A DNA stretch of 64,000 nucleotides from Malacoraja senta. Lineage: Eukaryota. The notes beneath the pieces are model-generated. The model ran no database searches, was not told the DNA's origin, and saw nothing but the letters and a program-made list of their open reading frames with translations. Shown piece by piece: positions 5,038-64,000 of the stretch. The translations under genes and the position numbers were made by a program. The stretch is from the NCBI GenBank assembly GCA_038087875.1, contig CM075991.1:10976001-11040000 (forward strand). The letters run 5' to 3'. Numbering within the stretch: position 1 is the first letter of the stretch; each line of letters starts with the position of its first letter.

Positions 5038-5334
5038 GTGAACTTTCTAATCGGGTTCGAAACCCCAATTCCCCTCCTGGGATAAATAAAGTTGTATCCC
5101 AAGGACTCCCTCCCCAAATGCATCATCCTCGCACGGGTACCGTGCGAGGGTGATGCATTTGGGGAGGGAGTCCGTGGGATTAGAGGAACAGATGTGGTTT
5201 TGCAAAATGTTTCAGGACGGAACTGCAGATGCTGGGTTAAACCGAAGATAGACACAAAAAGTTGGAGTAACATCTCTCATTCATTTGTTCCACATTTCCG
5301 TCTATATCTTTCGTTTCCCCCCCTCCCCCCCAGT

Positions 5335-8619: not shown

Positions 8620-9215
8620 ATCAAGTCACAAGTGATTGGAGTAGAATTGGGCCATTCGACCCATCGTCCACTCCGCCATTCAATCACGGCTGATCTATCC
8701 CTCCCCCCCCCCCAACCCCATTCTCCAACCTTCCCCCCCCAGAACCCCTGACACCTGTACTAATCAAGAATCTATCTCTGCCTTAAAAAATATCCACCGA
8801 CTTGGCCTCCACAGCCTTCTGTGGCAAAGAATTCCACAGATTCATCACCCTCTGACGAAATACATTCTCCTCGTCTCCTTCCTAAAAGAGCATCCTTTAA
8901 TTCTGCGGCTATGGCCTCTAGTCCTAGACTCTCCCACTCTTGGAAACATCCCCTCTATATAAGCCATATATATATTCCATATATATATATATTCTATATA
9001 TCAATGAGGCCCCCGCCCCCTCATTCTTCTCAACTCCAACGGGTACAGGCCCAGTGCCGACAAACGCTCATCATAGATTATCCTACTGATTCCTGGGATC
9101 TTTCTTGGAAACCTCCTCTGGACCCTCTCCAGAGCCAGCACATCCTTCCTCAGATATGGTCCTCCAAATTGCCGACAATATTCCAAATACGGCCTGACCA
9201 GCGCCTTATAGAGCC
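8620..9215 (-). mobile_element. CR1 3' fragment (degenerate)
   Basis: Antisense MEYCRQFGGPYLRKDVLALERVQRRF; CR1 3'UTR. Confidence 0.8.
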
Positions 9216-9294
9216 TCAGTATAATATTGTATCGAAGATAATATTGTACAGTATAATATTGTACAGTATAATACAGTATAATATTGTATCGAAG

Positions 9295-10766
9295 ATAGCA
9301 AACGTAACCCCACTTTTTAAGAAGGGAGGGAGAGAGAAAACGGGGAATTACAGACCAGTTAGTCTAACATCGGTAGTGGGGAAACTGCTAGAGTCGGTTA
9401 TTAAAGATGGGATAGCAGCACATTTGGAAAGTGGTGAAATCATTGGACAAAGTCAGCATGGATTTATGAAAGGTAAATCATGTCTGACGAATCTTATAGA
9501 ATTTTTCGAGGATGTAACTAGTAGCGTGGATAGGGGAGAACCAGTGGATGTGGTGTATCTGGACTTCCAGAAGGCTTTCGACAAGGTCCCACATAAGAGA
9601 TTAGTATACAAACTTAAAGCACATGGCATTGGGGGTTCAGTATTGATGTGGATAGAGAACTGGCTGGCAAACAGGAAGCAAAGAGTAGGAGTAAACGGGT
9701 CCTTTTCACAATGGCAGGCAGTGACTAGTGGGGTACCGCAAGGCTCAGTGCTGGGACCCCAGCTATTTACAATATATATTAATGACCTGGATGAGGGAAT
9801 TGAAGGCAATATCTCCAAGTTTGCGGATGACACTAAGCTGGGGGGCAGTGTTAGCTGTGAGGAGGATGCTAGGAGACTGCAAGGTGACTTGGATAGGCTG
9901 GGTGAGTGGGCAAATGTTTGGCAGATGCAGTATAATGTGGATAAATGTGAGGTTATCCATTTTGGTGGCAAAAACAGGAAAGCAGACTATTTTCTAAATG
10001 GTGGCCGACTAGGAAAAGGGGAGATGCAGCGAGACCTGGGTGTCATGGTACACCAGTCATTGAAAGTAGGCATGCAGGTGCAGCAGGCAGTGAAGAAAGC
10101 GAATGGTATGTTAGCTTTCATAGCAAAAGGATTTGAGTATAGGAGCAGGGAGGTTCTACTGCAGTTGTACAGGGTCTTGGTGAGACCACACCTGGAGTAT
10201 TGCGTACAGTTTTGGTCTCCAAATCTGAGGAAGGACATTATTGCCATAGAGGGAGTGCAGAGAAGGTTCACCAGACTGATTCCTGGGATGTCAGGACTGT
10301 CTTATGAAGAAAGACTGGATAGACTTGGTTTATACTCACTAGAATTTAGGAGATTGAGAGGGGATCTTATAGAAACTTACAAAATTCTTAAGGGGTTGGA
10401 CAGGCTAGATGCAGGAAGATTGCTCCCGATGTTGGGGAAGTCCAGGACAAGGGGTCACAGCTTAAGGATAAGGGGGAAATCCTTTAAAACCGAGATGAGA
10501 AGAACTTTTTTCACACAGAGAGTGGTGAATCTCTGGAACTCTCTGCCACAGAGGGTAGTCGAGGCCAGTTCATTGGCTATATTTAAGAGGGAGCTAGATG
10601 TGGCCCTTGTGGCTAAAGGGATCAGAGGGTATGGAGAGAAGGCAGGTACGGGATACTGAGTTGGATGATCAGCCATGATCATATTGAATGGCGGTGCAGG
10701 CTCGAAGGGCCGAATGGCCTACTCCTGCACCTAATTTCTATGTTTCTATGTTTCTATGTTTCTATA
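9295..10766 (+). mobile_element. 5'-truncated young CR1-clade LINE with an uninterrupted RT frame
   Basis: ANVTPLFKKG...YLDFQKAFDKVPH...GVPQGSVLGP...KFADDTKL to stop 10659; CR1 3'UTR and (TTCTATGT)n tail. Confidence 0.95.
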
Positions 10767-11949: not shown

Positions 11950-12750
11950 ATTGTACTGAGTATCGGAGTTGGGAGGCCATGGTGCAGTTGTACAAGACGT
12001 TGGTGTGAGGCCACATTTAGAGTATTGTGTTCAGTTCTGAGCACCATGTTTTAGGAAAGATGGTGTCAAGCTGGAAAGGGTACAGAGAAGATTTACAAGG
12101 ATAGACACAAAAAGCTGGAATAACTCAACGGGACAGGCAGCATCTCTGGAGAGAAGGGTGACGTTTCACCCACCCATTCCTTCTCTCCACAGATGCTGCC
12201 TGTCCCCGCTGAGTTACTCCAGCTTTTTTTTGTGTCTAGCTACGGTTTAAACCAGCATCTACACTTCTTTTTTACATATTTACAAGGATGTTGCCAGGAC
12301 AAGAGGGTCTGAGCTATTGGGAGAGGTTGAGAGGGCTGGGACTCCATTCCATGGAGCACAGGAGGATAAGATGATCCTACTGAGGTGCATAAAATCATGG
12401 GAGGAATAGATAGGGTAGATACACAAATTCTCTTGCCCAGAGTAGGGGAGTCAAGGACCAGAGGACATAGATTTAAGGTGAAGAGGAAAAGATTTAATAG
12501 GAATCCGTGGGGTAACTTTTTCTACACAAAGGGTGGTGGGTGTATGAAACAAGTTGCCAGAGGAGGTAGTTGAGGCAGGGACTATCCCAACATTTAAGAA
12601 ACAGTTAGGTATGTGGATAGGACAGGTTTGGAGGGATATGGACCAAACATGGGCAGGTAGGTCAAGCGTAGCTGGGACATGTTGGCCGATGTGTAAGTTG
12701 GGTGGAATGGCCTATTTCCACGCTGTATCACACTATAACTATGACTCTAC
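11950..12750 (+). mobile_element. CR1 3' fragment interrupted by a Penelope-end fold-back insertion (12103-12277)
   Basis: CR1 homology on both sides; direct repeat ATTTACAAGGAT at 12091-12102 and 12278-12289. Confidence 0.8.
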
Positions 12751-25914: not shown

Positions 25915-26340
25915 CTGTGTGGGAAGGGACTTCAGATGCTGGTTTAAACCGAAGATAGACACAAAATGCTGGAGTAACTCAGCAGGACAGGTAGCATCTC
26001 TGGAGAGAAGGAACGGGTGACGCTTCGGGTCGAGACCCTTCTTCAGACTGAGAGTCGGGGGGAGAGGGAAACTAGATACGGAAGGGTAAAAAGAGCATAG
26101 AGTGAAAAGGACAGATCAAAGCAGACGATGAACGAGGAAATGGACAATGGTTCATTGTTGGCCGAGGGGGAAGGTGACAACGAGGTAGACAAACAGTAAA
26201 ATTAATCAGGAGGACAGTGAAACTAGTCGGAGAACTAAGATGGGGAAGGATGGAGAGAGAGAGGGAAAGCAAGGGTTACTTGAAGTTAGAAAAATCAATA
26301 TTCATACCTCTGGGTTGTAAGCTGCCCAAGCGAAATATGC
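25915..26340 (-). mobile_element. Penelope-like 3' remnant
   Basis: Reverse complement encodes IFRLGSLQPRGMNIDF, followed by the terminal repeat. Confidence 0.78.
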
Positions 26341-29300
26341 GATCAAGGACTAATGAAAAGGCAATTGACTAATAAAACCCTTCAATTTATTTTTATCAGT
26401 TTTCTTTTTATAGCTATTTCTTTTTTATGCTGGCCCTTATTTGTTTTTTCCTTCACTTCCAGTTTCCCCCCCTCTCTCCCAACTACAATCAGTCTGAAGA
26501 AGGATCCCGACCCGAAACGTCACCCATCCATTTTCTCCAGAGATGCAGCCTGACCCGCCGAGTTACCCCAGCACTTTGTGTCTATCTTTGGTGCAAGGTC
26601 AGGTTCAAATCCAGGCACGTGGGGCTTTGACAGCAGTGTTAACAGATGCACCTCTCTGCTGCTCATTTTTAAATTGCCATCTTTTCTGTATTTGGAACTG
26701 GATCACTGGCGCACAGCAGATATGGCTAATCAGTATGGAAGGGGAGCACATGCTTGATCTAGATGCCCTCGACACTGCCATTCAGGGTACCTTTTGTGCA
26801 TCTGCTGTCTTGGCGGCAATAGGGACATAACGTTCCCAGACTGGGCAAGTGTACTTGGTGCTAAAGGTAGGGTGTGGATGGAAGGTTAATTTACTGATGA
26901 GTGTGATCAAATGTTGCATTTACAAGCTCACATTATGTTGTTATTGCTGCTGGGTTAGAGAAAGAAAATTTATGATTAAAATTTTTTTTTTAATTTTTTT
27001 TATTGTATAATCATAAATAAGATACTTTCTACCTTGGTTGAGTGCTGACCAAATGCATTCCAATTTCTGCATCCAAACTGCCTGCTCTCCCCACCCTCCC
27101 CTCACCACAATCAGCCTGAAGAAGGGTCCCCACCTGAAACATCACCTACCATGTTCTCCAAATTAAATTATCAATCAAATTTTGGATAATCATGAATAAA
27201 GATATTTTCTACCTTGGTAGACGAAATAAATTCCAATTTCTTGGTCATAGTCAGGCCAAGAAAACCTGCACTTACAACAATTGGGACTTGAAAATAGTTC
27301 AGTTTAGTTTATTGTCATCTGTACCGAGGTACAGTGAAAAGCTTTTGCTGCATGCTAACCAGTCAGCAGAACCAACCAGTGAAAATGGCCACCCTGTATA
27401 CTGCCTCAGTGTACTACTGCTATCAACTTGTACTCTATCTGAGATGCTTCTCTAAGATGTATCCAAGTGCTTATGTGTAATGATACTCCAGCACTTTGTG
27501 TCCTTTTTCTGTAAACCAGCACCTGCAGTTCCTTGTGCTTGAAGATAGACACACAAAATGTTGGAGTAACTCAACGGGTCGGGCAGCAGCTCTGGAGAAA
27601 AGGAACAGATGACATTTCGGGTCGGAATCCTTCTTCAGACTGGGGGTCTCCAGAGGGTAGAAGGCCACCCAGTGGAGTCCAAGAGGATTGTTAGAGATGG
27701 GAGAAGGGGTAGTCACCAAGTGGTGAGGACTCTTTCCCATAGGAAAAGGCACAGATGTGGAACGGTGGAAATCTTTGGTACAAATCAGCATCCTTCCTAC
27801 GCATCCCCTCCGTCTACTTCTGTTCAATACTTTTATTCAATGATATTTATAGGCTCTCTGAACCAGTGGGGTTCAGGCAATCGGGAGGATACTGGCATTG
27901 CTTAGTATTTTATAAAATAATTCCACTTGCTAATCATGTCACATTGAACACAGGACCATTTTGTACCAGTGGATTTGCATGCAAATACATCCAGAAGTGG
28001 TGTTTTGAAGCAAATGATACAGACTCATTAATAAATGTCATCAGAACCACTTCCTGAATAGTTAATTCCCTTTTCGTCAGGAAAACCGCAGGCTTTAATC
28101 AGAGAACGATTACGAGACACAGGGTGCAAACGTATCCATTCAAGGACGACTTCATTTGTACGAGTGCTGCCACTCATTTTTTAAATTGCAAAAAAAAAAA
28201 AAAGTTTTTTTGCAACAAACTGCAAATGATCTGAAACGAGAAAGACGGGACAGGCAGCATGAGTGGAGGAAATAAGCAAAGTTAATGGTGTTTTGAGATG
28301 GTGGCCTTTCATCAAGATTGTAAAGAGACGGAGAGAGAAGCATGTGTTAGGTTCATAAGTTCCAGGAGCAGAATTAGGCCATTTAGCCCATCAAGTCTAC
28401 TCCGCCATTCAATCATGGCTGAGCTATGTTTCCCTCTCAATCCCATTCTCCTGCCTTCTCCCCATAACCCTCGCGCCCTTACTAGTTAAGAATCGATCAA
28501 TCCCCTCCTTAAAAATATCCATTGAGTTGGCCTCCACAGCCGTCTGTGGTGATGAATTCCATTTTGGGGGGGGGGCTCCGGTTTCCTCCCACACTCCAAA
28601 GATGTACAAGTTTGTAGGTTGATTGGCTTTGATAACATTGTAAATTATCCCTTGTGTGGTAGTGTATGTGGCGATCACTGGTCGGCACGCACTTAGTGTG
28701 CCAGAGGAACTGTTTCTGCCCCTAAAGCCAGAAAATGCTACCCGACCCGTTGTGTTACTCCGACACTTTGTGTAAACCAGCATCTGCAGTCCCTTGACTC
28801 TAAATGATAGAAGTTGGCATGAACATGATAAATGATTTTTTTGCCGTTCTCATAATTCGGATGCACCATGCAAAAAATGTCAGGAAATTAAGAAACACTT
28901 CTGTGTGAATGGGATCTCAAGAGCAATGATTTCTCTGGCCAAACGGCAATGAGACAGCTGCTGCATGGACTCACTGAGGAATCAAAAGGCTCATCAGGGA
29001 AGTCAGAAATATAAGAGCCCAGATTTGGCAACTTGTCTGGGAGCTTGGCAACTTGCCTCAGAAGGCAGTGGAGGCCAATTCTCTGGATGCTTTCAAGAGC
29101 GAGTTGGATAGAGCTCTTAAAGAAAGCGGAGTCAAGGGATACGGGGCGAAGGCAGGAACGGGGTACTGATTGTGGATGATCAGCCATGATCACAGAGAAT
29201 GGCGGTGCTGGCTCAAAGGGCCAAATGGCCTCCTCCTGCACCTATTGTCTATTGTTTATTTCAAGGCTGTTCAACGCAAGTCACATTTGGTATTCAGTAC

Positions 29301-34170: not shown

Positions 34171-35119
34171 TACTAATCCAGGATAGAAAACACTCCGCAT
34201 CCGCGCTATTGTGGGTGAAGGTTTATTTGTTACATTGTGCTTCCAGATACCACAATGTTATTATCAAGACTGAAGATACATTCATTGAAGGAAAGCAATC
34301 GTTCCAAACTTATTAATATCCATGGGCAGCACAGTGGTTCAGCAGTAGAGCTGTTGCCTTACAGCACCAGAGACCGGAGTTCGATCCCGACTACGGGTGC
34401 TGTCTGTGCGGAGTTTGTACGCTCTCCCCGTGACATGTGGGTTTTCTCCGAGATCTTTGGTAAATTGTCCCTAGAATGCGTGTAGGATAGTATTAATGTG
34501 CGACGATCGCTGTGTCAATGCGAGGGGATCACTGGTAGGCGTGGACTCAGTGGGCCACAGGGCCTCTTTCCACGCTGCGTCTCTAAACTAATCTAAAACA
34601 TATCTAAGGCCGATAGAAAATGCTGGAAAAACTCATCGGGTGCGGCAGCATCTATGGAGCGATGGAATAGGTGACATTTCGGGTCGAAACCCTTCTGTCT
34701 GAATGAGGGTCTCGACCCGAAAAGTCACCTATTCCTTCGCTCCATAGATGCTGCCTCACCAGCTGAGTTTCTCCAGCATTTTTTAATCTACCTTCGATTT
34801 TTCCAGCACCTGCAGTTCCTTCTCAAATAAAACATATCTAAGATTGCTTGGAATGTCAAAACAATCTGCTTGTTCTGTCATTTGCATCTTACCAAATTCC
34901 ACACCAATACAATGCAAAACACACGTATAGTTCTGCAAGTTAATTTTCACTGCCTTTTATAGTGTGCTTGCTATAGGAAAATGCAATAGCCCAAAGGGAC
35001 ACAGAGAGATCCCACAAACTACAGTCAAATAGATCTAACTCCAGATCACATTCTGATCGGGGTCAGAACATTAGTTTAGTTTGTTGTCACCAATACCAAG
35101 GTACAGCGAAAAGCTTTTT

Positions 35120-35319
35120 NNNNNNNNNNNNNNNNNNNNNNNNNNNNNNNNNNNNNNNNNNNNNNNNNNNNNNNNNNNNNNNNNNNNNNNNNNNNNNNNN
35201 NNNNNNNNNNNNNNNNNNNNNNNNNNNNNNNNNNNNNNNNNNNNNNNNNNNNNNNNNNNNNNNNNNNNNNNNNNNNNNNNNNNNNNNNNNNNNNNNNNNN
35301 NNNNNNNNNNNNNNNNNNN
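35120..35319. other. Assembly gap (200 N)
   Basis: Run of N; the round length suggests a scaffolding gap of unknown size. Confidence 1.
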
Positions 35320-35419
35320 TAGGTGACGTTTCACAGAGTGCTGGAGTAACTCAGCGGGTCAGGCAGCATCTGTGGAGAACATGGATAGGTGACGTTTCAC
35401 AGAGTGCTGGAGTAACTAA

Positions 35420-42233: not shown

Positions 42234-45200
42234 GAAAACGACGCTAAAATCGCGGTAAAATTGCGGTAAAAATCGGGACTTTTAAATGAGAAAAGAGAAA
42301 AGCACACGAGCACCCAAGAAAACTACTATAAGTCTTCAGCTGGAAAAAGTTTTGGATACTCTGCAAACAACAGAAGAAGGCTCAGAAGAAGAGTCTTATA
42401 GCCAAGGAGCTGTGCTGGAAATGGCTACAAAAGGAGAAAAGAAGGAGAAGGAGGTAAAGCAAATGGTTTTAGATATAACTGCTACAATCAATACTACACT
42501 GGAAAAGATGCAGAGTATGGAGACTAAGATGCAGAATATGGAGACTAAGATGCAGAATATGGAGACTAATATGGAGACTAATATGGAGATATTCTCTCAT
42601 AAAATTGATAGTGCTTGTGCAGAGTTAAAGGAGCTGAAGAAACAACACAATGAATTTGATAAAAAACTTAAATCGGAATTTGTTAGAATCGAAAAGGATT
42701 ATAATCAGAAATTTGCTGGTGAAAATGCTAAGATGGACAACATGGATGAGAGAATGGAAGAGATGGAAAATGATATGAAAGAGATGATTACGGAAATAAA
42801 CAGTTTGAAAAAATTAAAGAAAGATGAAGCAGAAAAACTGGCAAGAATGACTGAGAAATGTTTGGACTTGGAAGCGAGAGCGAGAAGGCAGAATTTGAGA
42901 ATTGTTGGAGTAAGAGAAGGACGAGAAGGACATGTATCTCAAACACGTACTTTCGTTGCTTACTTACTCAAAGATGTTTTTAAACTGCCGGAAGAATTAA
43001 GAATAGATATTGTTCACCGAGCTGGACGTGTCCCAAGAGGCATAAATGCTGTTCCAAGATAGATAATTGTGAAATTTCTTGATATCTCTTTAGTGGAATT
43101 TATACTGAATAAGATTGTTCATGGGGTAAATTTGATATATGGTGGGGATAATATTCGATTTTTCCGTGATTATCCTCCGGAGATTGTCCAGAGAATGAAA
43201 TTGTTTACGCAGCCAAGAAACATATTGAGGGGTATACCGAAGGTCAGATATGGGGTAGTTTTCCCAGCAAAAATGAAAATTACTTATAATGGAACCGAGC
43301 GCTCATTTATGGATCCCGAAAAGCATTTAAATATGCAGAAGATATCGTGAGAAAAGCATCGAAAACATCGGAAGAAGAGGTCGAAGAGGAGGAACAGTGA
43401 ATATTTTAACTTTTAAGATAGAGCTGGAACTGGTTAAGATGGTGGTTTTTCCAGACAGCTACCGAGTTTATCTGTCTGGAATGTGTATTTGAGAACATTG
43501 TCCATGTTTCACCTTGAATGAAAAGCTCAAATATAAACAAAAGGATGTTGAAGACACTGTATAAGGGACATGGATGAGATGATATTAATATTTAACTTTC
43601 TAACTATTATATTCTAATTATAATTAACCAACTAATTTAACAAATTTAATTATACTAATGATTAGTGATTGTATGTAGTAAATATGAATAAATCATGTAT
43701 AAACCATTGCTTATAAATTGTAATTAACCAAAATGTCTATAACATTACTAACGTATTTTTTTTGTGTGGGAACGCAACATAAACTTGGAAAAGATCCAGG
43801 AATGATGTTAACCCCTCGGTACCTGCTTGTATGGTAGTTGGTTAGATATATTGGAAAGGTATAAATACTTATAGAACTGAGAATATGTTGTGTTTTATAT
43901 TTGTTTTTTTATTACCTTATTTTTAACTTTTTAATATTTTCTCTCTGAGTGTTTTTTTTGGTGCTTTTTACTAGTGCTAGTTTGATAAATTTAAATAAGA
44001 ATAAACAAGATATGAGACGGTCTGTAGTTTTTTACGAGATGTTAATAAGGGATTGGGGTTCAATGTAAAACAACATCAAAGGAAGTCTATAAATTTTTCG
44101 CCACCTTAGGTGGCTATTCGTCTTTAAGGTATCTTTTCTTAGATACCTTAACTTCACTTTTTTTTTTTAAATCACTATATAAATTTGTATCTGCTTAGTT
44201 TTTGTGTAATTAATTTTAAATCACAATTTTTCTTGCTTTATCTAAGGTACTTTTGGAGAAGGTGATGTAATATAAACTTAAAAACTTGGAATGACCACCC
44301 AACGCCCAGAATTCTGAGGTATTTGTTTGCACCATATGATTCAAGAATACTACTTTGATATACAATGCAAGACGATAGACAAATAAAGAATGGAGGAATC
44401 ACATTCTGTAGTTGGAATATAAGGGGTGCCAATGAACCAATAAAGAGGGGTAAAATTTTTGCTCACCTAAAATCTTTGAAAAGTGACATAATTTACTTGC
44501 AAGAAACTCACATGAAACAACAAACACAAATGAGATTAAAGTCGAAGTGGATAGGCCAAACATATTATTCGTCATTTACTTCTAAATCTAGAGGTATGGC
44601 TATTCTTATTCGAAAAGGTATACCTTTCAAATTAAAGAATACTATATCAGATAAAGAGGGAAGGTATATCATAGTTTCGGGAGAAATTTATGCTACCCCA
44701 ATAACTATGGTAAATATTTACGCTCTGAATTTTGATAACCCTCAATATTTTGATAAAATTATAGATATAATATTAGAGTTTAATTATCAAAATGTGATAA
44801 TAGGTGGGATTTCAACTGTGTTTTAGATCCATACTTAGACAAATCAGTAAAACAAAGAAGGAGTAATTTAAAATCTAATAGTGAACTTCTAAATACTTAT
44901 ATAAAAAATACTAATATAACAGATGTATGGAGATCTGCTAATCCAGCAGGAAGGGAATATTCGTTTTACTCTTCGGTACATAAAACATATTCAAGAATTG
45001 ATTATTTTTTAGTGGATATGAAATTAATGCCACATACAATTAATCCAACATACCATATTAGTAGTATTTCTGATCAGTCTCCGTTGACTTTTTCTGTAAA
45101 ATTTGAGGGAATGCCGGGTAAAAACTTTTTTTGGAGATTTAATACATATATATTAAATGACTTACCGGGTTATCAATACTTAAAACAACAAATGAAATTA

Positions 45201-48200
45201 TTTGTTGAGATAAATGATACACCAGGTACCTCACCTTCTTTACTATGGGAAACTTTTAAAGCATTTATTAGAGGAATTATAATTTCATACAAAATTTTTC
45301 AAAATAAAAAGAATAAAACAGAACAAACGTTGTTAGAACAAGAAATAAGACAGTTAGAGTTAGATAATGCTAAAGATTCCACTATAGATAAACATAATAA
45401 GATAATATTACTGAAATTTAAACTTAATCGAATTCTCTCGGCAAGAGTAATAAGATTATTCCAAATTACAAAACAGGAACATTTTGAGTTTGGTGACAAA
45501 CCACATAAGCTGTTAGCGCACCAACTGAAAAAACAAGAAAAAGAAATTACTATAAATAAAATTAAATCCGAGAATGGTGAATTATTAATACTACCTAAAG
45601 ATATTAATAAAAGATTTGCTCAATTTTATCAAAATTTATATACATCAAAAACTAAAACAGAAGATAGTAAAATTAATTTTTTTTTAGATAATTGTAATCT
45701 ACCAAAACTTGATCTTTTGGAACAAGAAGAACTCGGAGCACAAATTACAATCGAAGAAATAGGTGAAACAATAAAATCGTTGAAAAATGGTAAGACACCG
45801 GGACCAGATGGTTTTAGTAATGAATTTTATAAAAAAATTCATGAGATAACGACCCCCTATTTATTTAATTTATATACTCACGCTTTTAAAGAAAATAAAT
45901 TACCTGAAACATTAGCAGAATCAACTATCACGCTTATTCCAAAGAAAGATAAAGATCTAGAGGAACCGGGCTCATATAGAGCTATATCACTTTTAAATAC
46001 AGATCAGAAAATTTTAGCAAAAACCCTAGCCAGAAGATTAAGCAAATATATTAGTAAATTGATAAATCCTGATCAAACGGGGTTTATACCCAAAAGATAT
46101 TCATTTAATAATTTGAGACACCTGTTTAATATAATGTACTCACATAAAGTGGAGGAAGAAGACATATCAATTATTTCTTTGGACGCAGAGAAAGCATTTG
46201 ATCAGGTAGAATGGCAGTATTTATACAAAGTATTACAAAAATTTAATATGGGAGAGAATTTTATTACATGGGTGAAATTATTATATGATAAACCGATGGC
46301 AAGAATATTAACTAATAGTATGTTATCTCCAAAATTTCAATTATCGAGGGGTAATAGGCAGGAATGTGCTTTATCACGCCTGCTATTTGCCCTTATGATA
46401 GAACCTTTGGCCGAAAGTATAAGAAGTCATCCGAATATTCAGGGTTATAATACTAGGGCCTCAAATAATAAAATTTCATTATATGCAGACGATATACTGT
46501 TATATATAACAAACTCACAAACGAGCATACCAAATTTATTAAACTTAGAGGAATTTGGGTCCTTTTCTGGATATAGAATAAATTGGAACAAAAGTGAAAT
46601 CATGACGTTAAAACCTCAAGAATCCACACACTTACTGAAGTTCCCCTTTAAAATAGCAACAGAAAAATTTAAATATCTGGGTATTCAGATTACTAGAAAA
46701 CATAAAGCTTTATTTAATATCAATTTTATACCTTTAATAAATAAACTTAATATAATGATTAAATTTTGGAAAACACTTCCTTTATCACTAATAGGTAGAA
46801 TAAACGCTATAAAAATGATCTTTCTACCACAGTTATTATACCTATTTCAGTCTATACCAGTATATGTACCGAAATATTTTGTTTCTAAATTAAACTCTAA
46901 TATTACTAATTTTGTTTGGGACTATAAATCACATAGAATTAAAAAAGAACACTTATGTAAACCAAAAGATGTCGGGGGACTTTCACTCCCGAATTTACTG
47001 TATTACTATTGGGCAATACATATTAAGAATATAATTTACTGGTTGGATAGTTCAACCCAACAGACAGAATGGATAAAAATGGAGAAAGAGGATTGTTACC
47101 CTTATAAGATAGGAACGATCCTCTTCTCCCCGAAAAAAATGAACAATACAATATATAAGAAGAACCCAATTATACAAGATACAATAAGAATATGGAAACA
47201 AATAAAATTATCCTTAAAATTAAGAAACCTATCATTGTTAACACCGATAGCGAATAATCCTTTATTTAAACCATCTATGATGGACAAAATATATAATCAA
47301 TGGGAAAGTTTAAGAATTAAAAGAATCGGGGACATGTATGAAATGGGAGATTTATTATCATTTCAACAATTACAATTAAAATTTAAACTGAAAAACAATC
47401 ATTATTTTAAATATTTTCAGATTTGCAATTTCTTGAAGACATACATACAGGGATATCAAAAAATAATTCCTGATTTATTGGAAGAAGTAATGAATATTAA
47501 AGCTGATACACAAAAATTAATATCATATTTATATAATAGTATTTTAAATATAGATTTACCTGCGACTGAGGTAATTAGAGAAGAGTGGGAACGGGAATTA
47601 ATGATAAAAATTACGAAGGTTACATGGGAAAAGTATTTGACATACATTCACAAATGTTCGATTAATGCAAGACATAATCTAATTTAATTTAAAATTTTAC
47701 ATAGATTGTATTACTCAAAAACAAGATTAAATAAATTGTACCCAAATATATCCCCCACTTGCGATAAATGTTTAATCCAAGATGCAACTATAACACACTC
47801 TTTTGGTTCCTGTATAAAACGTTATAGATTTTGGAGTGATATTTTCGAAATATTCACAAAATTATTTAAGATAAAAATGGAACCTAATAATGAATTGATT
47901 GTATTTGGGGTAATGGAAGATGGGAATAAATTGAATCCATCTCAAAAATTATTTTTAAATTATGGTTTAATAATAGCAAAAAATTAATACTTAAATTTTG
48001 GAAAAATACACCAATACCAATGCTCAAAATGAGGATTGCAAGTATGTTGGACACTGCACATCTTGAGGAAATGCGATTCCTCCTAATAGATAAATTTGAC
48101 CAATTCACAACGAGTTGGTCTGCATTTGTCGTCTTTTTGGAATCATATGGTGCAACACAATTGTAAAAGCTAACTCATGACTGGGCGAGGGATGGTCAAG

Positions 48201-50190: not shown

Positions 50191-50427
50191 AGTTCTCTCA
50201 ATGATTCTCTGTTGAAGCCGCCAATACTCACGTGGCAAAAAAGTAAATTTTGAATAAATGTGAAGTTGTCAACATTTGTCTAAAAACTGATCAACGTTAC
50301 CCCGTGTGTTTTCTTCTGATATGAATAAACTTTGAGCATTTCTGTTCATTCTCCAAGCTCAGAATCTGTCTTGTCTACAAAAAGGTGTCAGCGCTACTCT
50401 TCAGGTAACCGGCAGCTCTGTATAGAT

Positions 50428-52994
50428 TATAGAAGAACCAGGATCATATAGAGCTATTGCTTTGTTAAATACGGATCAAAAAATAATAGCGAAAACACTA
50501 GCCAGTAGACTAAGCAGGTATGTTAGTAGACTAATAAATGAGGATCAAACAGGATTTATACCTAAGAGACATTCATTTAATAATTTGAGACGTTTGCTTA
50601 ACATAATGCACTCACATAAATCTCAGGACCAAGAGTTATCTATCATCTCATTGGACGCAGAAAAAGCGTTTGATCAAGTAGAATGGGACTATATGATTAA
50701 AGTATTGCAAAAATTCCAATTGGGAGAGAACTTCATTGCATGGATAAAACTATTATATAACAAACCTACGGCTAGAATACTAACTAATAATATATTATCC
50801 TCGAAATTTGAACTATCAATGGGGCAATAGACAAGGATGTTCATTATCACCGCTGTTATTTGCTTTAGTAATTGAACTCCTTGCTGAAAAAATAAGAACA
50901 CACATGGATATTTACGGTTATAATACAAAATATTCAAATAACAAAATATCCCTATATGCCGATGATTGTACATCACAAAACCACAAATTAGTATACCAAA
51001 TATATTAAATTTAATTGAGGACTTTGGATCCTTCTCAGGATATAGAATAAACTGGAACAAAAGTGAAATTATGTCGATAAAACCAAAAGACTCAACACAC
51101 CTCAGGAAATTCCCCTTTAAAATAGCTACAGAAAAATTCAAATATTTGGGAATTGAAATTACTAGAAATTACCAGGATATGTTTAAAGCCAATTATAATC
51201 CCTTACTTAAGAAATTAAATAATATGATTAAATTCTGGAAAACATTTCCGATGTCCTTAATAGGCAGAATAAATGCTATAAAAATGATTTTCTTACCACA
51301 AATCCTATACCTATTTCAATCAATACCTATATATCTCCCAAAAAAGTTTTTCAAAAAATTGGACTCAGACATTACAAATTTTATATGGGATTATAAATCC
51401 CATAGAATACAAAGAGCACACCTTAATAAACAAAAAGAGTTGGGGGGTCTCGCGCTCCCTAACTTTATGTATTATAAATGGGCAGTAAATATTAAAAATA
51501 TGATTCACCTGCTGGACAATTCTGCCCAGCAGGTGGACTGGATTATAATGGAAAAAGGGGACTGTTCCCCGAGTAATATAGGAGCGATTATTCTCTCTCC
51601 AATCAATTTGAATAATAAAAATTATAATAAAAACCCAATTATAAATAGCACAATTAGAATATGGAAACAAATAAAACAGAATCTAAAATTAAGAAACCTA
51701 TCTCTCTCAATACCAATAGTTAATAACCCATCGTTTAAACCTTCAACCATAGACAAACATTTATACAATGGGAAAGAATGGGAATCAAAATGCTCGAAGA
51801 TCTGTATGAATTGGGAAAATTACTATCATTTCAACAACTACAACTGAAATATAATTTGAAAAATAATCAATATTTTAAATATCTACAAATTCGTGATTAC
51901 CTGAAAAAATACACAAAAGACTATCATAATATGCCTTCCGACTTACTAGATGAAGCAATGAAGACAAAGGCGGAATCAGCTAATCTAATATCGTACTTAT
52001 ATAATATCATTTTAAACATAGAAATACCCACAACAGATGGAATTAGAAGAGACTGGGAAGAAGAATTAGCTATAAAAATTTCAAAAGAGAGCTGGGATAA
52101 CCATTTACTACAGGTGCATAAATGTTCGATCAACATACAACATACGCTCATCCAATTCAAAACATTACATAGACTATATTATTCAAAAACTAAATTAAAT
52201 AAAATCTTTCCTAATGTTTCACCAATCTGTGATAAATGTCTATGTCAAGAAGCTACCATAGCGCATTCTTTTGTTTTTTGTACAAAAATCCAAAAATTCT
52301 GGTATGAAATATTTGATATTTTCTCAAAATTAATTAAAATAAAACTGGTACCAAAACCAGAATGGATCATTTTTGGAATATCGGAAGGTATCCCTGAATT
52401 AAACGTGTATCAGAAGAACTTATTCAATTACGGGCTAATAATGGGAAAAAAGCTCATACTTAAATTCTGGAAAAATGCACCCACACCAACAATAAAAATG
52501 TGGACATCAAATATGTTGGAAACATTACATCTGGAAGAGATGAGATTCCTCTTAGCAGGTAAAGCAGACCAATTCCAAAAGACGTGGTCTACGTTTCTGG
52601 ACCTATTACAAGCATGAGGTGCAATAGTAATTTAAAAAATAAATAAATAAAGAAATGGTATCAGGACCTGGTAATGGGAGGTAAAACAATAAAAACAGAC
52701 TTGGTTGGTGGTTCCCTTTCTGCGATTGTTCCTACTTTCTTTTTCTTTCTTTTCTAGGATCTACTTTCTTACTTTACTTCCTTCTCTAACTTCTTTTCTA
52801 AGGGGCTTTCTTTTCACAACACTCTCTTGCACCTCACGACTCTTGCGCACTTTCTTTACTTTTCTTACTTCTATCTTTCTCTTAAAGCTCAAAAAAATTA
52901 AGCGGTATAAAAAATGTATTAAGATATAAGTGTTGTGTATTTCTGTAATTTCCCGTACTTCTAATAAAAATAATTTAAAAAAATTTAAAAAAAA
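50428..52994 (+). mobile_element. 5'-truncated L1 LINE (RT to 3' end), frameshifted; different subfamily from the 42-48 kb copy
   Basis: ORF pieces 50462-52617 are homologous to L1 ORF2; poly-A tail; 14-bp TSD AGCTCTGTATAGAT at 50414-50427 and 52995-53008. Confidence 0.95.
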
Positions 52995-53495
52995 AGCTCT
53001 GTATAGATGATTCCTGAAAGATAGACACAACATTTTGGAATAACTCAGCGGGTCAGGCAGCATCTCTGGAGAAAAGGAAATTGTGACGTTTCGGAACGAG
53101 ACCCTTCAGACCCCGATGAAGGGTCTCGATCCGAAACGTCACCTGCCCCGCTGAGTTACTCCAGCACGTTGTGTCTATCTTCGGTGTAAACCGGCATCTG
53201 CAGTCCCTTCCTACAGATGATTACTGGAAGGATCGGTCCACAAATCAGAGTTAAACTCCCTGGGGCCTCCTGACGAGGCAATCTTGCGGGGATTTAGTTG
53301 GAGAATTCGTGCTTCTGAAGAAAATGCAAAACAATTTAAAAATAGCCCGTAAACCAAGGTTCATTGAATCTGGTTATGGAATTGGGTAATAAACCACGTA
53401 TACTCCAATCCAGAGTCCCTACAGACCATTCATTTTCATATAAGAAAGGTCTGATGTAACCAAAGCGATACCTTTCAGAGCCGGATGGGCAGAGT

Positions 53496-53565
53496 ATGGT
53501 CTATCCAATCATCTATGAGTTTGAGCGTATCTACTACCCCGTTCTCGCAGCAGTTGGCATCACAG
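53496..53565 (+). CDS. GPR139/GPR142-like orphan GPCR paralog A, coding exon 1 (MVYPIIYEFERIYYPVLAAVGIT)
   Basis: 70-nt exon ending CACAG|GTAAGG, phase 1; joins in frame (G+TT=Val) to the exon at 54917. The intron lies inside TM1 as in GPR139-family genes. A homologous exon is at 62293. Confidence 0.85.
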
Positions 53566-54916
53566 GTAAGGAAATCGGGCCAGGAAATGGGCAAATATTT
53601 GGTGAATATTGTGTGTGTTACTGCCCTTGCACCTCAGCATGCGGGTATTCATCTTTTTGTGATGGAGATAGAAGGTGTACATTGAGCAGAGTTGAGTTGC
53701 GTTGAGTTCAGTTGAGTTGAGTTTAGTTTAGAAAGACACACAATCCTGGAATAACTCAGCGGGCCAGGTAGCATTTCTGGAGAAGAAAAACGACGGTTGA
53801 CGTTTCGGATTGGGACCCTTCTTCAGACTTAATGCGTATGAAGGAACTGCAGATGCTGGTTTACACCGAAGATGGATACAAAATGCTGGAGTCACTCAGC
53901 GGAACAGGCAACTTCTCTGGAGAGAAGGAATGGGCGACGTTTCGGGACGAGACCCTTCGTTTATTATAGTCTCGTGTACCAAGGGACAATGAAAAGTTTT
54001 TTTTTGTTCCGTGCTATCCAGTCATCGGAAAGACTAGACTGGATTACAATCAAGCCGTCCACAGTGTACAAATACGGGATAAAGGGAATAACGTTTAGTG
54101 CAAGAATAAGTCCAGTAAATTCCGCAGGTTTCCAATGAGATAGATCGTAGCTCTGGATGGTTCTCTAGTTGATAGGATGGTTCATTTGCCTGATAATAGC
54201 TGGGAAGAAACTAAACCCTGAATCTACAGGACACGTAAAATAGACACACAAAAAAGCTGGAGTAACTCATCGGGTCAGGCAGCATCTCTGAAGAAAAGGA
54301 ATAGTTGACGTTTCGGGTTGAGACATTTCTTCAGACTGCGAGTCAGGGGGAGAGGGAGACTAGAGGTATGAACAGGTACGGAATAAAGCAGAGCCGGCAT
54401 CTATGACCAAGTAAAATTGGAGCCCACAATGGTCCATTGTTGGCCGTAGAAGAAGTGTACATGAATGTGGAGTTATTCGTTTTCACACTTCTGAAGCTAA
54501 CAGAGCGTCTGATTTAAAACGTTTGATATACTTTCAAATGCCAGAGGATACAGCCGGCCGCTCATTCAGCCTCGAAGAGCACCCTTCCTCTCCTGACCCT
54601 GCCTCAGTCTTCCATATCCACCAAGAACAACCCAGCTTCTAATTGAGGTGTTCCATGCAACCACGGGAGATCAATCACCCCACCCCTGTTGCCAGTCAGT
54701 TTCCACCGTCCAAGGACCCGAACAACCCTTCCAGCTGAACAGAAACAAATCACATGCACTTCTTCAACGCTTGGGTCCTCTTTCCAATACCCACATGTAT
54801 TTGTAGAAAACTCCCTTTCATTTCACAAGGGTTTCTTGGAGATTCCGTTTCCCCGTGCACTGCGCTGGTCTATTTGCAAAGAAGTATTGACAATTTATTT
54901 TCCCTTTCTGTTGCAG

Positions 54917-55815
54917 TTAACTTGGTGGCGATCTTAATCCTGCGCCGGGGGAAATGCGGACTTTCCCAATGTATTACTCGCTATCTGGTTTCCATGGCGG
55001 TGGCCGATGTAATGGTGGTGATCATCGAAGTCATACTGAAACGGATTAACAACATATACTTGCCGATAAATATCTTGTTCATCACTCCAATCTGTGCCAT
55101 GAAACTAGTCACCAAGATTGCAGCCCTCGACTGTTCTGTCTGGTTCACCGTCGCTTTTACCTTTGATCGTTTTGTGGCCATTTCTTGTCCAAACCTCAGG
55201 CCAAGGTATTGTACCGAGAGGACTGCAAGTGTGGTCATAGCAACAGTGTGCACGCTGGCCTGTTTGAGGAGTATCCCTTTTTACTTTATGTATAAACCCA
55301 GATTTATCATTAACAACATCCCGTATTTCTGCCTTGAAACCGATGCCTACTATACTTCGCCTCTGTGGGCGGCTTACGAGTGGTTCGACAGTATCTTAAC
55401 CCCATTGGTACCAATCTTCCTCATCCTTCTATTCAACGCCCTTACCATCAAACATATCATAAAGTCCAATAAAATCCGTAGGGCGCTCATGAGTAACGTT
55501 GATGAAGGCAAGGATTCTGAGAGCGAGAACCGTAAGAAGTCCATGATTTTGCTTTTTACCCTGTCTGCCAATTTCATCCTCCTCTGGGTAACATACGTTG
55601 TACATTCCTTAAGCTGGCGCGTAAAAAACTATAACTACACAGACAGATATTACACCAACCAGATATACATCAACCAGCAAACAGGTTACATGTTGCAACT
55701 ACTGAGTTCCTGCACCAACACTTGTATCTATGGACTGACACAGAGGATGTTCAGACAGGAGCTGAAAAATGGGGTGAAATACCTGGTCACACTCAATGGG
55801 AAACTCTGTAAATAG
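54917..55815 (+). CDS. GPR139/GPR142-like orphan GPCR paralog A, coding exon 2 (spliced product 322 aa, intact 7TM)
   Basis: TTGCAG acceptor ends at 54916. Open frame NLVAILIL...YLVSMAVAD...SVWFTVAFTFDRFVAISCP...LIFLLFN-like TM5...NTCIYGLTQRMFRQEL to TAG at 55815; class A GPCR motifs of the GPR139-like type. Confidence 0.9.
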
Positions 55816-59564: not shown

Positions 59565-61050
59565 TCCCATTTCCTATTAACTCGCCAGTGTCCTGGCTCT
59601 TTCATTTCGTTTCACACTTACAGGAACTGTTTCGCCACATTTCTTAAATTGCCATGTGGGAATAGAACATTTATAGAAAATAGAACAGTACAGCACAGGA
59701 AAAACCCTTTCGGCCCACAATGTCCTTGACAATCATGACACCAGATTAAACTAATCCTCTCTGCCTGCACATGATCCATATTGCCCCTATTCCTTGAATA
59801 TCCATGTGCGTATCTCTTAAACGCCACTATTGCATTGACCTTCACTCCCACCCCTGGTAGTGCATTCCGGGCACCAACCACCCCTACCCCCTACCCCACA
59901 CCGCAACTGGGCTGTTTCCATGCTGTATGACTCCATAAGTCCTGGTGCCAAAGGGTATAGAACTGACCAGGGCATGTTGGAATCAAAGAAAATCATAGTC
60001 ATAGTCACACAGGGTGGAAACACGCCCTTCGGCACAACTTGCCCACACTGGCCAACATGTCCCACCTTCCCGCGTTTGGCCCAAATCCCTCCAAACCTGT
60101 CCTTTCCATGTATCTGTCTAACTGTTAAAGTTGGCAAACTAAATGTCGGCAGGTAAAACAGTAGTGGAAGAGTAATTAAAGTGGAGATGTATAAGGGACA
60201 ATACACCTTCATTCTCTTGAAGGAGAAGGTTGGGGAAGTTAAATTCCATACTCCCCGAAAAATCAGAGAGTGAAATCAAGCTGATAAAGAGTGTACAGCA
60301 GGTTGTGAACTCAGGTAGAATCCAACTGATTAAAGGGAAATTGAGAATGGCAGAGAGGGAGCGTGCGAATGGGACAACAGCAAACTGAAATGGAAAGAAT
60401 AAGTATTCTATCGGCACATTGTATAAAATTTGGAAAATGAGCAAGGGAAGAGGTAGGATTGATTGGAAACCATAAGGAAATTTGCGTGTGGGGTAAAGAT
60501 CCTAACTGAGTATTTTACCATGTCAAAGAAAACAATACATCTGGGCAGACAGCAAACATGTGATTAAGACTTGTCAACTAATAATGACACCAGGTCACTG
60601 TTAATCTCCTTGTTCAGATGGCATGCACACTAAATAAAGAAGGAACATGCATAAGCCCAGGTCATCATCCTCCAAACACACGTATATTCAAGGACAGTGC
60701 CTGAGGATAGGAATATTTCTTATGTTACCTCTTGATTCAACAGAGGGCGTAGAGGTAAACCCAGTAACTAAAGGCTGATCAGTTGAACTTCAATGATGGT
60801 TGAATGCTTAAAGCAATTGTTATGAACCGAATGAGCAGTCACTTGGACAAATGTGGATTGATGAGAGAAAGCCAGCGTGGATTTGTTAAATGCAAGTCAT
60901 GTCCAGCGAACTTGGTAAAGATACATTCCTGGCAATAACAAGAGATAATCAAGGAGGGAATGCAATTGATATGTATTTTGGAAAGGCATTTCAACAAGAA
61001 AGGCTTATCAACGAGACTGATGATATAGAAAGCGATTAGCAACTAGATAA

Positions 61051-61736
61051 AGTGTTAATGGTCAATTCTTTGTCAATTCTTCCCTTCCCTCCCATACCAC
61101 CCCCTCCCCTGGTACTTTCCCTTGCAACCGCAAGAGATGCAACACTTGTCCCTTCACTTCCCCCCTCCACTCCATTCAAGGACCCAAGCAGTCGTTCCAG
61201 GTGCGACAGAGGTTCACCTGCATCTCCTCCAACCTCATCTATTGCATTCGCTGCTCTAGATGCCAGCTGATCTACATCGGTGAGACCAAGCGGAGGCTTG
61301 GCGATCGTTTCGCCGAACACCTCCGGTCGGTCCGCAATAACCAACCTGAACTCCCGGTGGCTCAGCACTTCAACTCCCCCTCCCATTCCGTATCTGACCT
61401 CTCTGTCCTGGGTCTCCTCCATGGCCACAGCGAGCAACACCGTAAATTGGAGGAAATGCACCTCATATTCCGCTTGGGCAGTCTACATCCTGGTGGCCTG
61501 AACGTTGAATTCTCCCAATTCTGCTAGCCCTGGCTGTCCCCTCCCCTTCATCAGCCATCTGGTTGTCTCCTCCCCTCCCCCAGCCCTCGGGCTCCTCCTC
61601 CGCCTTTTCCTTTTTTCCTTTCTTCTCCCCACCCCCTATCAGTCTGAAGAAGGGTTTCGGCCCGAAACGTTACCTATTTCCTTCGCTCCATAGATGCTGC
61701 TGCACCCGCTGAGTTTCTCCAGCATTTTTGTGTACC
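61051..61736 (+). mobile_element. Penelope-like element 3' end: GIY-YIG endonuclease frame (61201-61527) followed by a hammerhead-bearing terminus
   Basis: FTCISSNLIYCIRCSRCQLIYIGETKRRLGDRFAEH...VAQHFN...LHPGGLN is the PLE GIY-YIG domain. 14-bp direct repeat TAGCAACTAGATAA at 61037-61050 and 61737-61750. Inserted in an old CR1. Confidence 0.92.
61644..61671 (+). ncRNA. Minimal hammerhead ribozyme motif in the Penelope terminus
   Basis: CTGAAGA-A-GGGT(TTCG)GCCC-GAAA-CGT-T: conserved CUGANGA/GAAA core, helix II hairpin, palindromic ACGT in place of helix III. Confidence 0.65.
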
Positions 61737-62292
61737 TAGCAACTAGATAACATTGGCAAAGTAACTGGAAATCGAGAGTAATGGTGGAATGTAGTTGTTT
61801 TTTTTTGATTGGCGGGAAATGGACAGTCGAGTTCCCCATGAATCGCTCCCGGGGCAACTGCTTTTCCCAATAACATTTAGATATGGATGTGCAGGGCAGA
61901 ATTTCCCAATTACAATTGTCCCAATGATATGCAAATTAGGGGGAAAATTAGGTCGGTTGTAGGGAAAAGAGACAACAGACAACAGACTCAAGAAGATAAA
62001 AATCAAGCCTTGAGTATGAGCGGATGAAATGGAAGGTCTTAACATGCACTGTTAATGAAGGTGTTTTGAAGAAAACAATTGTTTTCTGAGAAAAATGCAA
62101 ATTATTTTAAAAATAGCCTGCGAATCTGGCTTTGGTTGATTAAGTCTGGTTGTTTAATTAAACGTAAGGGCAAGAGTGTGCTCGACCTGGGTGTCCCAAC
62201 AGACCATTCCATTCCGTATAAGAAAGGTCTCAGGTAAGCACATTGACGCCATTCAGACAGAGCCTGATGGGCAGCTCTCCTTGATGCACCAC

Positions 62293-62362
62293 ATGGGCTA
62301 TCCGGTCATCTTTGTGTTTGAGCGCATCTATTACCCTATTCTTGCAACAGTCGGCATCACTG
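62293..62362 (+). CDS. GPR139-like GPCR paralog B, coding exon 1 (MGYPVIFVFERIYYPILATVGIT; alternative in-frame ATG at 62284)
   Basis: 70-nt homolog of 53496-53565 (13 differences); donor CACTG|GTAAGG, phase 1. Confidence 0.85.
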
Positions 62363-62690
62363 GTAAGGATATGGAACCTTTTTTGTACATTTTTGTGATC
62401 GATTTATAAATGTTTGCCTTTCTTCTCTTTCACTGCAAAATCCAAACGTGTTTTTGATTGCTACCCACTCCCCTTCTTAACACGCTTACCTCGGGCACGG
62501 GAGATGCAACCTCTGCCCTTTCGCCTCTTTTCTTCCAACCAGGGTCACACACAGTTTTTTTCCAAATGAAGCAGCAATTCACTTAAGATAGACACAAAAT
62601 ACTGGAGTAATGAAGCGGAACCGGCAGCATCTCTGGATACAAGGAATGGGTGACGCTTCGGGTCGAGACCCATCTTCAGACTGAATAAGA

Positions 62691-62855
62691 TCATCCTCCT
62701 GTGGGCAATATATGCTGTACTTCCTTAAAATGGCGAATGACAAACTACAATTTCACAGACAAGTATTACACCAACCCGATAAACATCGACCAGCAAACAG
62801 TGTTCATGTTGCATCTACACAAACACTTGTATCTATGGACTGACACAGAGGAAGT
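62691..62855 (+). pseudogene. Captured, degenerate fragment of a GPR139-like exon 2 (TM6-ECL3-TM7)
   Basis: Aligns by eye to 55574-55747 (TCATCCTCCT...TATTACACCAACC...ACACTTGTATCTATGGACTGACACAGAGGA) with a 1-nt and an ~11-nt deletion. Confidence 0.85.
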
Positions 62856-63730
62856 CTTCAGACTGAAGAAGGGTCTCGACACGAAACATCACCCATTCCT
62901 TCTATCCAGAGATGCTACCTGTTTGGCTGAGTCACTCCGGCATTTTGTGTCTATCTTCGGTGCAAACCAGCATCTGCAGTTCCTTCCCACCACCAATTCA
63001 CTAACTTCTTCCAATCGAGTGCACTGTGTTAAGGTGTTCTCGATATGACCTCTTCAGCATTGGAGAAACCACACGTAGATGGGTGAGCGCCTGGCCCGGT
63101 CACCCGCATTAGGTCTGTAAGTACAACCCCGAGCCTCCTACACTGTTCCAAGGTAAACACTGGAATCGTGAGCAGAACACACCAGTCTGAAGAAGGATTC
63201 ACAGACTCACAGAGAGTGGTGAGTCTGTGGAATTCTCTGCCTCAGAGGGCGGTGGAGGCAGGTTCCCTGGATGCTTTCAAGAGAGAGCTAAATAGGGCTC
63301 TTAAAATAGCGGTCAGGGGATATGGGGAGAAGGCAGGAACGGGGTACTGATTGTGGATGATCAGCGATGATCACATTGGATGGCGGTGGTGGCTCGAAGG
63401 ATCGTATGGCCTACTCTTGCACCTATTGTCTATTGACGATTGTCCATTCGCTCCACAGATGCTGCCTGGCCCGCTGAGTCTTGCTATTGTAATGTAAACT
63501 AGAAGACCAACAATGTATCTTCCACTGCAACCTTCTCAACTCAATAACAAATGCCACACCTTCATATAATCTGCTTTCTCTTTTCCTGATTCAGATCTGG
63601 GCAATCTATCCTTGATAATGGATTAGATTATATATGTTTCTATTTTTAAACCGCAAGAAATCAGTGATTTACGTTGTCACTGGTCTATTACAGTCTGGTG
63701 ATAATTTTCTTGTTTTCCTTTCTGTTGCAG

Positions 63731-64000
63731 TTAACTTGGTGGCGATCTTCATCCTGCGGCGGGGAAAATGCGGACTCTCCAAATGTATTACTCGCTATCT
63801 GGTTGCCATGGCGGTGGCCGATGTAATGGTGGTGACCGTCGAAGTCATACTGAAGCGGATTAACAACATTTACTTGCCGATAAATGTCTTGTTCATCACT
63901 CCAGTCTGTGCCATGAAACTAGTCATCAAGATTGCAGCCCTCGACTGTTCTGTCTGGTTCACTGTCGCTTTCACCTTTGATCGTTTTGTGGCCATTTCTT
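63731..64000 (+). CDS. GPR139-like GPCR paralog B, coding exon 2 (partial, runs off the window)
   Basis: TGTTGCAG acceptor; open frame NLVAIFILRRGKCGLSKCITRYLVAMAVAD...FTFDRFVAIS; 15 differences in 270 nt versus paralog A. Confidence 0.88.

Follow-up and report, generated by a model that had tools for sequence, protein, structure and literature searches.

How did a piece of a receptor gene come to lie between two inverted retrotransposon ends, inside an intron of a gene of its own family? The unit that raises this question (62575-63002) sits in a window of 64,000 nucleotides, the whole stretch of DNA that was analysed, and consists of a 9-bp target-site duplication, CAATTCACT, enclosing two inverted Penelope terminal arms that in turn enclose about 165 nt of a GPR139-like exon 2. 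The initial annotation had taken it for a Pack-like capture of a gene fragment by a Penelope-derived fold-back element. All of these parts are present in place (Table 1), and the unit is real and correctly described but over-interpreted as a cargo-carrying element. Two features had been overlooked: a duplicated palindrome centre that flanks the cargo, and a matching segment in the host gene itself, outside the window, as a candidate donor.

Table 1. Positions, in the 64-kb window, of the unit, of other Penelope insertions and of the receptor genes.
Feature	Position	Strand	Remark
Target-site duplication, left copy, CAATTCACT	62575-62583	+	9 bp
Target-site duplication, right copy, CAATTCACT	62994-63002	+	9 bp
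Short Penelope terminal arm (pLTR end)	62585-62684	-	decayed hammerhead-like core; without the ~30-nt tail
Fold-back centre repeat, left copy	62673-62689	+	16/17 identical to right copy; overlaps inner end of short arm
Cargo, GPR139-like exon 2	62690-62854	+	165 nt; sense to host gene
Fold-back centre repeat, right copy	62855-62871	+	contains 7-nt gene match, 62857-62863
Long Penelope terminal arm	62858-62991	+	tail at about 62960-62991
Older Penelope GIY-YIG remnant, left half	62459-62583	+	insertion target
Older Penelope GIY-YIG remnant, right half	63003-63138	+	tblastn E 1e-5, within three test sequences
Other head-to-head short and long pair	3015-3206		11-bp duplication
Other head-to-head short and long pair	12091-12289		12-bp duplication
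Other head-to-head short and long pair	34594-34842		15-bp duplication
Other head-to-head short and long pair	53005-53222		8-bp duplication
Reference 5'-truncated Penelope copy	61037-61750	+	14-bp duplication; arm of another subfamily
Reference copy, GIY-YIG frame	61051-61524	+
Reference copy, terminal arm	61637-61733	+
Paralog A exon 1	53496-53565	+
Paralog A exon 2	54917-55815	+
Paralog A segment homologous to cargo	55574-55756	+	not the donor
Host paralog B coding exon 1	62284-62362	+
Host paralog B exon 2	63731-64000	+	continues past window end

The insertion site is inside the intron of paralog B (62363-63730), the second of two GPCR genes, A and B, that stand in tandem on the + strand. 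The proteins of the window are closest to those of skates, the best relatives of paralog A being Rhinoraja proteins at 83-88% identity. Its family, automatically named GPR139, gives 1546 protein matches at E up to 1e-20 and is strongly expanded in sharks and rays in this search, an expansion that may be little described in the literature. Five Rhinoraja paralogs carry consecutive accessions, which suggests a tandem cluster. At the beginning of exon 2 paralogs A and B share 94% identity (54899-55186 vs 63713-64000), compared with about 72% around exon 1 (53415-53575 vs 62193-62372), a contrast that may hint at gene conversion in the cluster. The intron of paralog A also holds a decayed GIY-YIG remnant (54610-54880; score 97 vs a shuffled maximum of 73.5), and the remnants in the introns of A and B match at 75/124 positions. 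Elsewhere in the window, 4562-5038 is a putative exon of another rhodopsin-type receptor, whose translation we take to be tachykinin-receptor-like, and the long frames at 42286-47684, 50426-52614 and 8764-10656 presumably belong to LINE-1-type ORF1/ORF2 and CR1-type reverse transcriptase, one of the LINE-1-type-looking frames having 967 aa. An assembly gap of 200 N at about 35120-35320 is distant from the unit.

The two arms of the unit are complementary at 83% over 106 nt (62580-62685 with 62857-62962); the hairpin energy of -177 kcal/mol (z -12) merely restates this inversion. By profile search the left arm covers 62578-62686 (model 7-115) and lacks the tail, and the right arm covers 62854-62991 (model 5-142) with the tail present. 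Between them, the cargo aligns with the corresponding segment of paralog A at 146/185 positions (E 3e-41, within-window search), with one 1-nt and one 11-nt deletion relative to it and a first letter that has no match in the gene. It appears to span the end of TM6 to the end of the TM7 region, with helix names assigned by inference. The cargo lies wholly inside exon 2 and so carries no intron-loss mark, and its sense orientation is compatible with an RNA or a DNA template. A 119-aa frame over the cargo (62689-63045), considered as a gene, was rejected as a frameshifted read-through with a sub-threshold Pfam match only. The cargo is a dead, frameshifted, non-coding fragment with no evident function.

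The flanks of the unit provide a record of the site before insertion. With the unit and one repeat copy excised, the joined flanks align without a break to the younger GIY-YIG copy at 61095-61354 with a score of 116, compared with a maximum of 66 in 200 shuffles, and with a 2-nt gap a few bases right of the insertion site. Taken separately, the two flanks give a marginal score on the left (59.5 vs 57) and a clear one on the right (63 vs 45.5). An older GIY-YIG remnant was thus split by the unit, as had been proposed. The same continuity bears on the alternative that the initial annotation itself had raised, in which the cargo is the remnant of a third paralog left by tandem duplication and flanked by two unrelated arms by chance. 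The GPCR genes do stand in a tandem cluster and the arms are dense, a profile search finding 68 copies in the 64 kb. However, once the unit is removed the flanks form a single older Penelope remnant, arms and cargo lie together within the 9-bp repeat, and four variants are common to both arms, as discussed below. We consider the relic largely refuted and its remaining probability very small.

The inverted arms are not what sets this unit apart. Many of the 68 copies, found with a profile seeded with 11 of them, stand head to head, the short arm of a pair ending near position 110 of the model and the long arm near 142. Adjacent short and long arms in this arrangement are bounded by an exact outer repeat of at least 8 nt in 5/14 combinations (8, 9, 11, 12 and 15 nt), compared with 8/740 non-adjacent controls, where the search boxes were chosen after seeing the duplications and some of the 14 are double-counted. 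At 9 nt or more the controls fall to 2/740, of which one overlaps itself and the other is arm sequence. In the four remaining pairs with duplications the spacer is absent or a few letters long, and the arm ends of the cargo unit (model 115 for the short arm, 142 for the long) resemble theirs. In several of these four, the duplication extends into the end of the short arm, which suggests microhomology with the target.

This anatomy agrees with what is described for Penelope-like insertions, in which an inverted 5'-truncated copy accompanies a one-sided tail of 30-40 bp (Craig et al. 2021, PMC8557442). For a Penelope protein from an anole, in vitro work shows cutting and extension of both strands, with reverse transcription starting at two sites that the tail separates (Frangieh et al. 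2024, PMC11167929). The skate unit shares with these canonical insertions the head-to-head arms, the one-sided tail and the AT-rich target; unlike them as these sources present them, it has no ORF between its arms, and its spacer is host coding sequence (PMC8557442, PMC11167929). ATT, which is the most frequently cut word in vitro (PMC11167929), is present in its duplication; it occurs in 3/6 of the duplications checked, and its complement in one more. Given the adjacent-pair counts together with this published anatomy, this arm family usually yields inverted termini with a duplication, and the unit is a single Penelope-type insertion of that kind. Its unusual feature is the content of its spacer. 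The prospect of further inverted-arm units with unique cargo finds no example among the five other spacers tested in the window (57, 299, 430, 774 and 1040 nt), all of which are at least partly window repeats and belong to pairs for which no end duplication of at least 8 nt was found. The 430-nt spacer, between a long and a short arm head to head at 25916-26596 without outer duplication, is partly Penelope 3' sequence.

The arm family can be linked to an element with a GIY-YIG ORF through the reference copy, where a GIY-YIG frame is followed by an arm inside one 14-bp duplication. This frame matches the Pfam GIY-YIG model at E 1.2e-4 (22.7 bits, cut-off 22.6), and GIY-YIG ends also lie upstream of the arms at 21797 and 25916. 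No Penelope-type reverse transcriptase ORF was identified among the long frames of the window. From the Cys-rich stretch upstream of GIY-YIG alone, the retrotransposon is probably of Neptune type. Hammerhead core words and a short helix II, read by eye against the familiar hammerhead motif, are visible in the arm consensus, and both arms of the cargo unit are changed there. An Rfam search of 61000-64000 at E up to 5 returned no ribozyme match and one chance-level snoRNA match only. A minimal hammerhead ribozyme in the pLTR has been described (PMC4209133).

The two arms also carry a record of their origin. Each departs from the consensus of the other 66 at 12/98 positions, about 8 of these changes being private to the arm and four common to both, and these four letters do not occur together in any further arm among the 68. 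At least four non-consensus letters are shared by 38/629 arm pairs; nine of ten other pairs share few variants (0-2), so shared letters are no uniform signature. The four common letters are best read as pointing to one template for both arms, as support and not as proof; later conversion between the arms could also have produced them.

Is the unit real, and how old is it? We compared contigs from 4/24 sequencing runs (X1-X4), representing organisms A, B and C, and those of two other species carry three of the four junctions. No RNA run was listed among those matching the unit. From organism A there is cover of 62292-62608, with 1 differing letter, and of 62964-63233, with 3. Two organism C contigs take in 62250-62649, with 26 differing letters and 15 gaps, and 62964-63139, respectively, while an organism B contig runs from the left arm into the cargo (62657-62842) and is 11 letters longer than the window over that span. 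These 11 extra letters indicate that the 11-nt cargo deletion is probably later than the insertion. The flank-to-left-arm junction is spanned in X4, 66 letters into the arm, the left-arm-to-cargo junction in X3, with 34 letters on the arm side, and the right-arm-to-flank junction in X2 and X4, with 30 arm letters before the repeat where the bridging rule is 31. For the cargo-to-right-arm junction no spanning contig is among the pieces listed for these runs. No empty-site joint is among the 15 joints listed, with 1309 more outside the listing, and a lack of cover over a part is no proof.

An assembly artefact at a repeat-rich palindrome has to be weighed here, all the more as trouble at such structures has been warned of (PMC8557442) and one junction has no spanning contig among the listed pieces. 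Against it stand the independent contigs across the other three junctions and the old substitutions of the cargo itself: the window letter at 62783 recurs in contigs at depth 109.7 (organism B, X3) and 12.5 (organism C, X4), both near single-copy depth, and paralog contigs do not have it. We regard an artefact as scarcely credible. The unit is old, common to three species and fixed. Cargo-type contigs have depths of 109.7 (X3), 12.5 (X4) and 21.2 (X2), each near flank depth, the latter two being read off table differences and depth being no copy number; the unit is apparently not amplified. Arms and cargo look about equally old, roughly judged from ~8/98 changes per arm and 8/114 between the cargo and a paralog contig.

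These observations argue against a cargo-carrying element. In Pack-MULEs and other Pack-type DNA transposons, a gene fragment lies between inverted ends within a target duplication, and the ends are equal, transposase-binding terminal inverted repeats. The skate unit has a gene fragment between inverted ends within one duplication. Unlike the Pack-type ends, its arms are unequal retroelement ends made at insertion, an ordinary insertion product of their family. There is no sign that the unit has moved with its cargo, which occurs once in the window and at about single-copy depth in three runs. By the features tested, the unit is a Penelope pLTR insertion and not a Pack-type DNA transposon.

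The most informative part of the unit is the edge of the cargo, which is bounded by a 17-nt direct repeat. This 17-nt word is the palindrome centre formed when the arms join without a spacer. The inner ends of the cargo-unit arms match the palindromic partner word at 8/9 and 7/9 positions, compared with at most 5/9 in the other readable arms (28 of 30 readable; 8/38 full-length inner ends could not be read). The test is post hoc, the left side has one mismatch, and the evidence for the duplicated centre comes chiefly from the left, since the right inner word is partly supplied by the gene's own letters. A joint that drops one repeat and the cargo (62680 to 62863) is found in 12, 0, 11 and 16 contigs in runs X1-X4, placed at 82% likeness and with the letters between the joint ends not known; we read these contigs as other members of the arm family.

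The junctions themselves are asymmetric. On the right, the word TTCAGAC is common to gene and arm, as had been reported, and it occurs once in the 969-nt coding sequence of paralog A, at the cargo end. It does not form a clean junction, however, as two extra letters separate it from the last gene base, a displacement of 2 nt. At the left junction there is a single unmatched letter and no homology. A 7-nt match that stands 2 nt off the junction is what would be expected of a palindrome-centre primer on the gene sense strand with 2 nt unpaired. We infer that the palindrome centre had already formed when the gene piece was added to it, by copying primed through this microhomology.

Which gene supplied the piece? 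The exclusion of paralog A in the initial annotation stands: at the protein level the cargo agrees with it at 37/52 residues, rank 18 of 123 proteins, and judged by sequence paralog A is not the donor. Five other proteins are tied at 41/52. Among them, Rhinoraja P0002, P0121 and P0122 are also among the best matches to the N-terminal part of paralog B, at 102-103/113 residues. An obvious candidate is the host paralog's own matching segment, predicted at 64388-64570, which would lie beyond the window end at a distance of 1.4 kb. Relative to the cargo, a high-depth organism B paralog contig has 8 other letters over 114 positions, plus the 11-nt gap. Most likely the piece came from a nearby family member; that cargo and host gene share both family and strand would be an improbable coincidence otherwise, and this points to copying in place rather than to Pack-like capture.

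A piece acquired elsewhere would have had to arrive by transduction. In this scenario a fusion of pLTR and GPCR exon was transcribed with upstream gene sequence and moved in trans, was 5'-truncated after 165 nt, and received its inverted arm at insertion. Host DNA between Penelope termini is already known from rotifers: in Adineta vaga, Arkhipova, Yushenova and Rodriguez (2013) describe a whole gene enclosed by pLTRs, for which there is an 8-bp duplication and the empty allele has been verified, as well as unrelated non-coding pieces that lie between solo pLTRs with duplications (PMC3846280). The likeness extends to a tailless inverted pLTR, to junction palindromes and to duplications of 8-10 bp (PMC3846280). 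Moreover, the cargo is collinear with the long arm, at the place where other pairs have Penelope's own upstream sequence. However, the rotifer case, as described there, involves a whole intron-bearing gene between two direct pLTRs, with a third inverted, at a new site (PMC3846280), whereas the skate unit has a 165-nt exon piece between head-to-head arms, a duplicated centre and an own-family host gene, in a vertebrate. Chance landing in an intron of a same-family gene would be very unlikely unless the source lay in the same cluster, cargo-type contigs are at about single-copy depth, and the forward-arm letters on the left inner end are left unexplained. Such transduction thus appears improbable.

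Based on the above data, we propose that the centre of a usual Penelope fold-back insertion received a copied fragment of a GPCR paralog close by as its strands were being joined, a reading that we hold tentatively, with close to even confidence. Both strands would be nicked 9 bp apart in the paralog B intron, as the duplication records, presumably by an endonuclease. Each free end would then be extended from one of the two start points of a shared pLTR template, as the anole in vitro work suggests, which would yield the arm with a tail and the arm without one that are observed. The 3' ends could pair through the short self-complementary word at the arm inner ends, and the fill-in of about 17 nt would create the palindromic centre; the occurrence of the cargo-less joint in other genomic copies makes this step plausible. 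The bottom-strand end might subsequently let go and pair over 7 nt with the sense strand of the GPCR exon, leaving 2 nt unpaired. From there 165 nt would be copied from RNA or DNA of the local exon, and the copied strand would be joined to the other end without homology, in keeping with the junctions. Template switching by the reverse transcriptase onto nearby DNA or RNA, as initially suggested, fits microhomology-primed copying of this kind.

The duplicated palindrome centre also makes possible a later repair patch that needs no Penelope enzyme. Here a cargo-less palindrome was inserted, and its centre later broke with a stagger of ~17 nt and was patched with a GPCR exon close by, or the RNA of that exon, as template. 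The break would come from cleavage of a hairpin or cruciform or from a retroelement endonuclease nick, and Penelope would supply only the fragile site. Perfect palindromes are fragile, the 17-nt direct repeat resembles a second target duplication nested in the first, and the cargo-less joint is a recurring form. Break patches with microhomology and an untemplated letter have been described (PMC5110952). However, the roughly equal age of cargo and arms speaks against two steps, as do the lack of a poly(A) and of a T-rich nick site such as LINE-1-made patches have, and neither organism B nor organism C showed an orthologue without cargo. We regard this course as a close, somewhat less likely rival. 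Because both other species already carry the cargo, insertion-time capture is not separable from later repair; that one or the other took place, as local templated copying into a palindrome centre, we consider quite probable.

The unit works in a way similar to the rotifer captures, to templated patches at breaks and to double template switches, each with its differences. Templated break insertions of classes 1 and 2 (Onozawa and Aplan 2016, PMC5110952) are likewise short patches with microhomology and an unmatched letter, and their donors are described as distant. The LINE-1-type class 1 has a duplication, a poly(A) and a T-rich nick site, whereas neither poly(A) nor signal was found at the cargo 3' end, although the skate unit does have a 17-nt flanking repeat; class 2, as that source defines it, is without duplications, unlike the skate unit (PMC5110952). 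Tripartite chimeric retrocopies made by a double template switch (Gogvadze et al. 2007, PMC2104539) also join three pieces within one duplication, but they are described as products of LINE machinery from collinear transcripts, without fold-back arms. A 2026 preprint on animal retrozymes treats tandem pLTR-derived repeats, another anatomy (10.64898/2026.07.22.740005). Our literature search, which covered few subscription papers, listed no vertebrate case of a host exon fragment inside a Penelope fold-back unit.

The main interest of the unit lies in the duplicated palindrome centre around a host exon patch, which suggests a bearing on how Penelope insertions are finished; in the account of PMC11167929, the later steps of integration are still unvalidated. 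The unit is a mechanistic fossil that suggests an order of events, in which two new ends pair, are filled in, slip and copy a neighbour, and its value lies also in a pattern that can be counted genome-wide. Lastly, it is conceivable, though we think it unlikely, that skate Penelope fold-back insertions arise by two-ended reverse transcription and that the element's polymerase routinely jumps onto the nascent transcript of the invaded gene as the two 3' ends meet in the middle. If so, there would be a genome-wide class of 'local snapshots', pieces of host-gene exons wrapped in a hairpin. From these the still unsolved second half of Penelope integration could be read directly, and vertebrates would have a means of shuffling exon pieces among the genes of a cluster.
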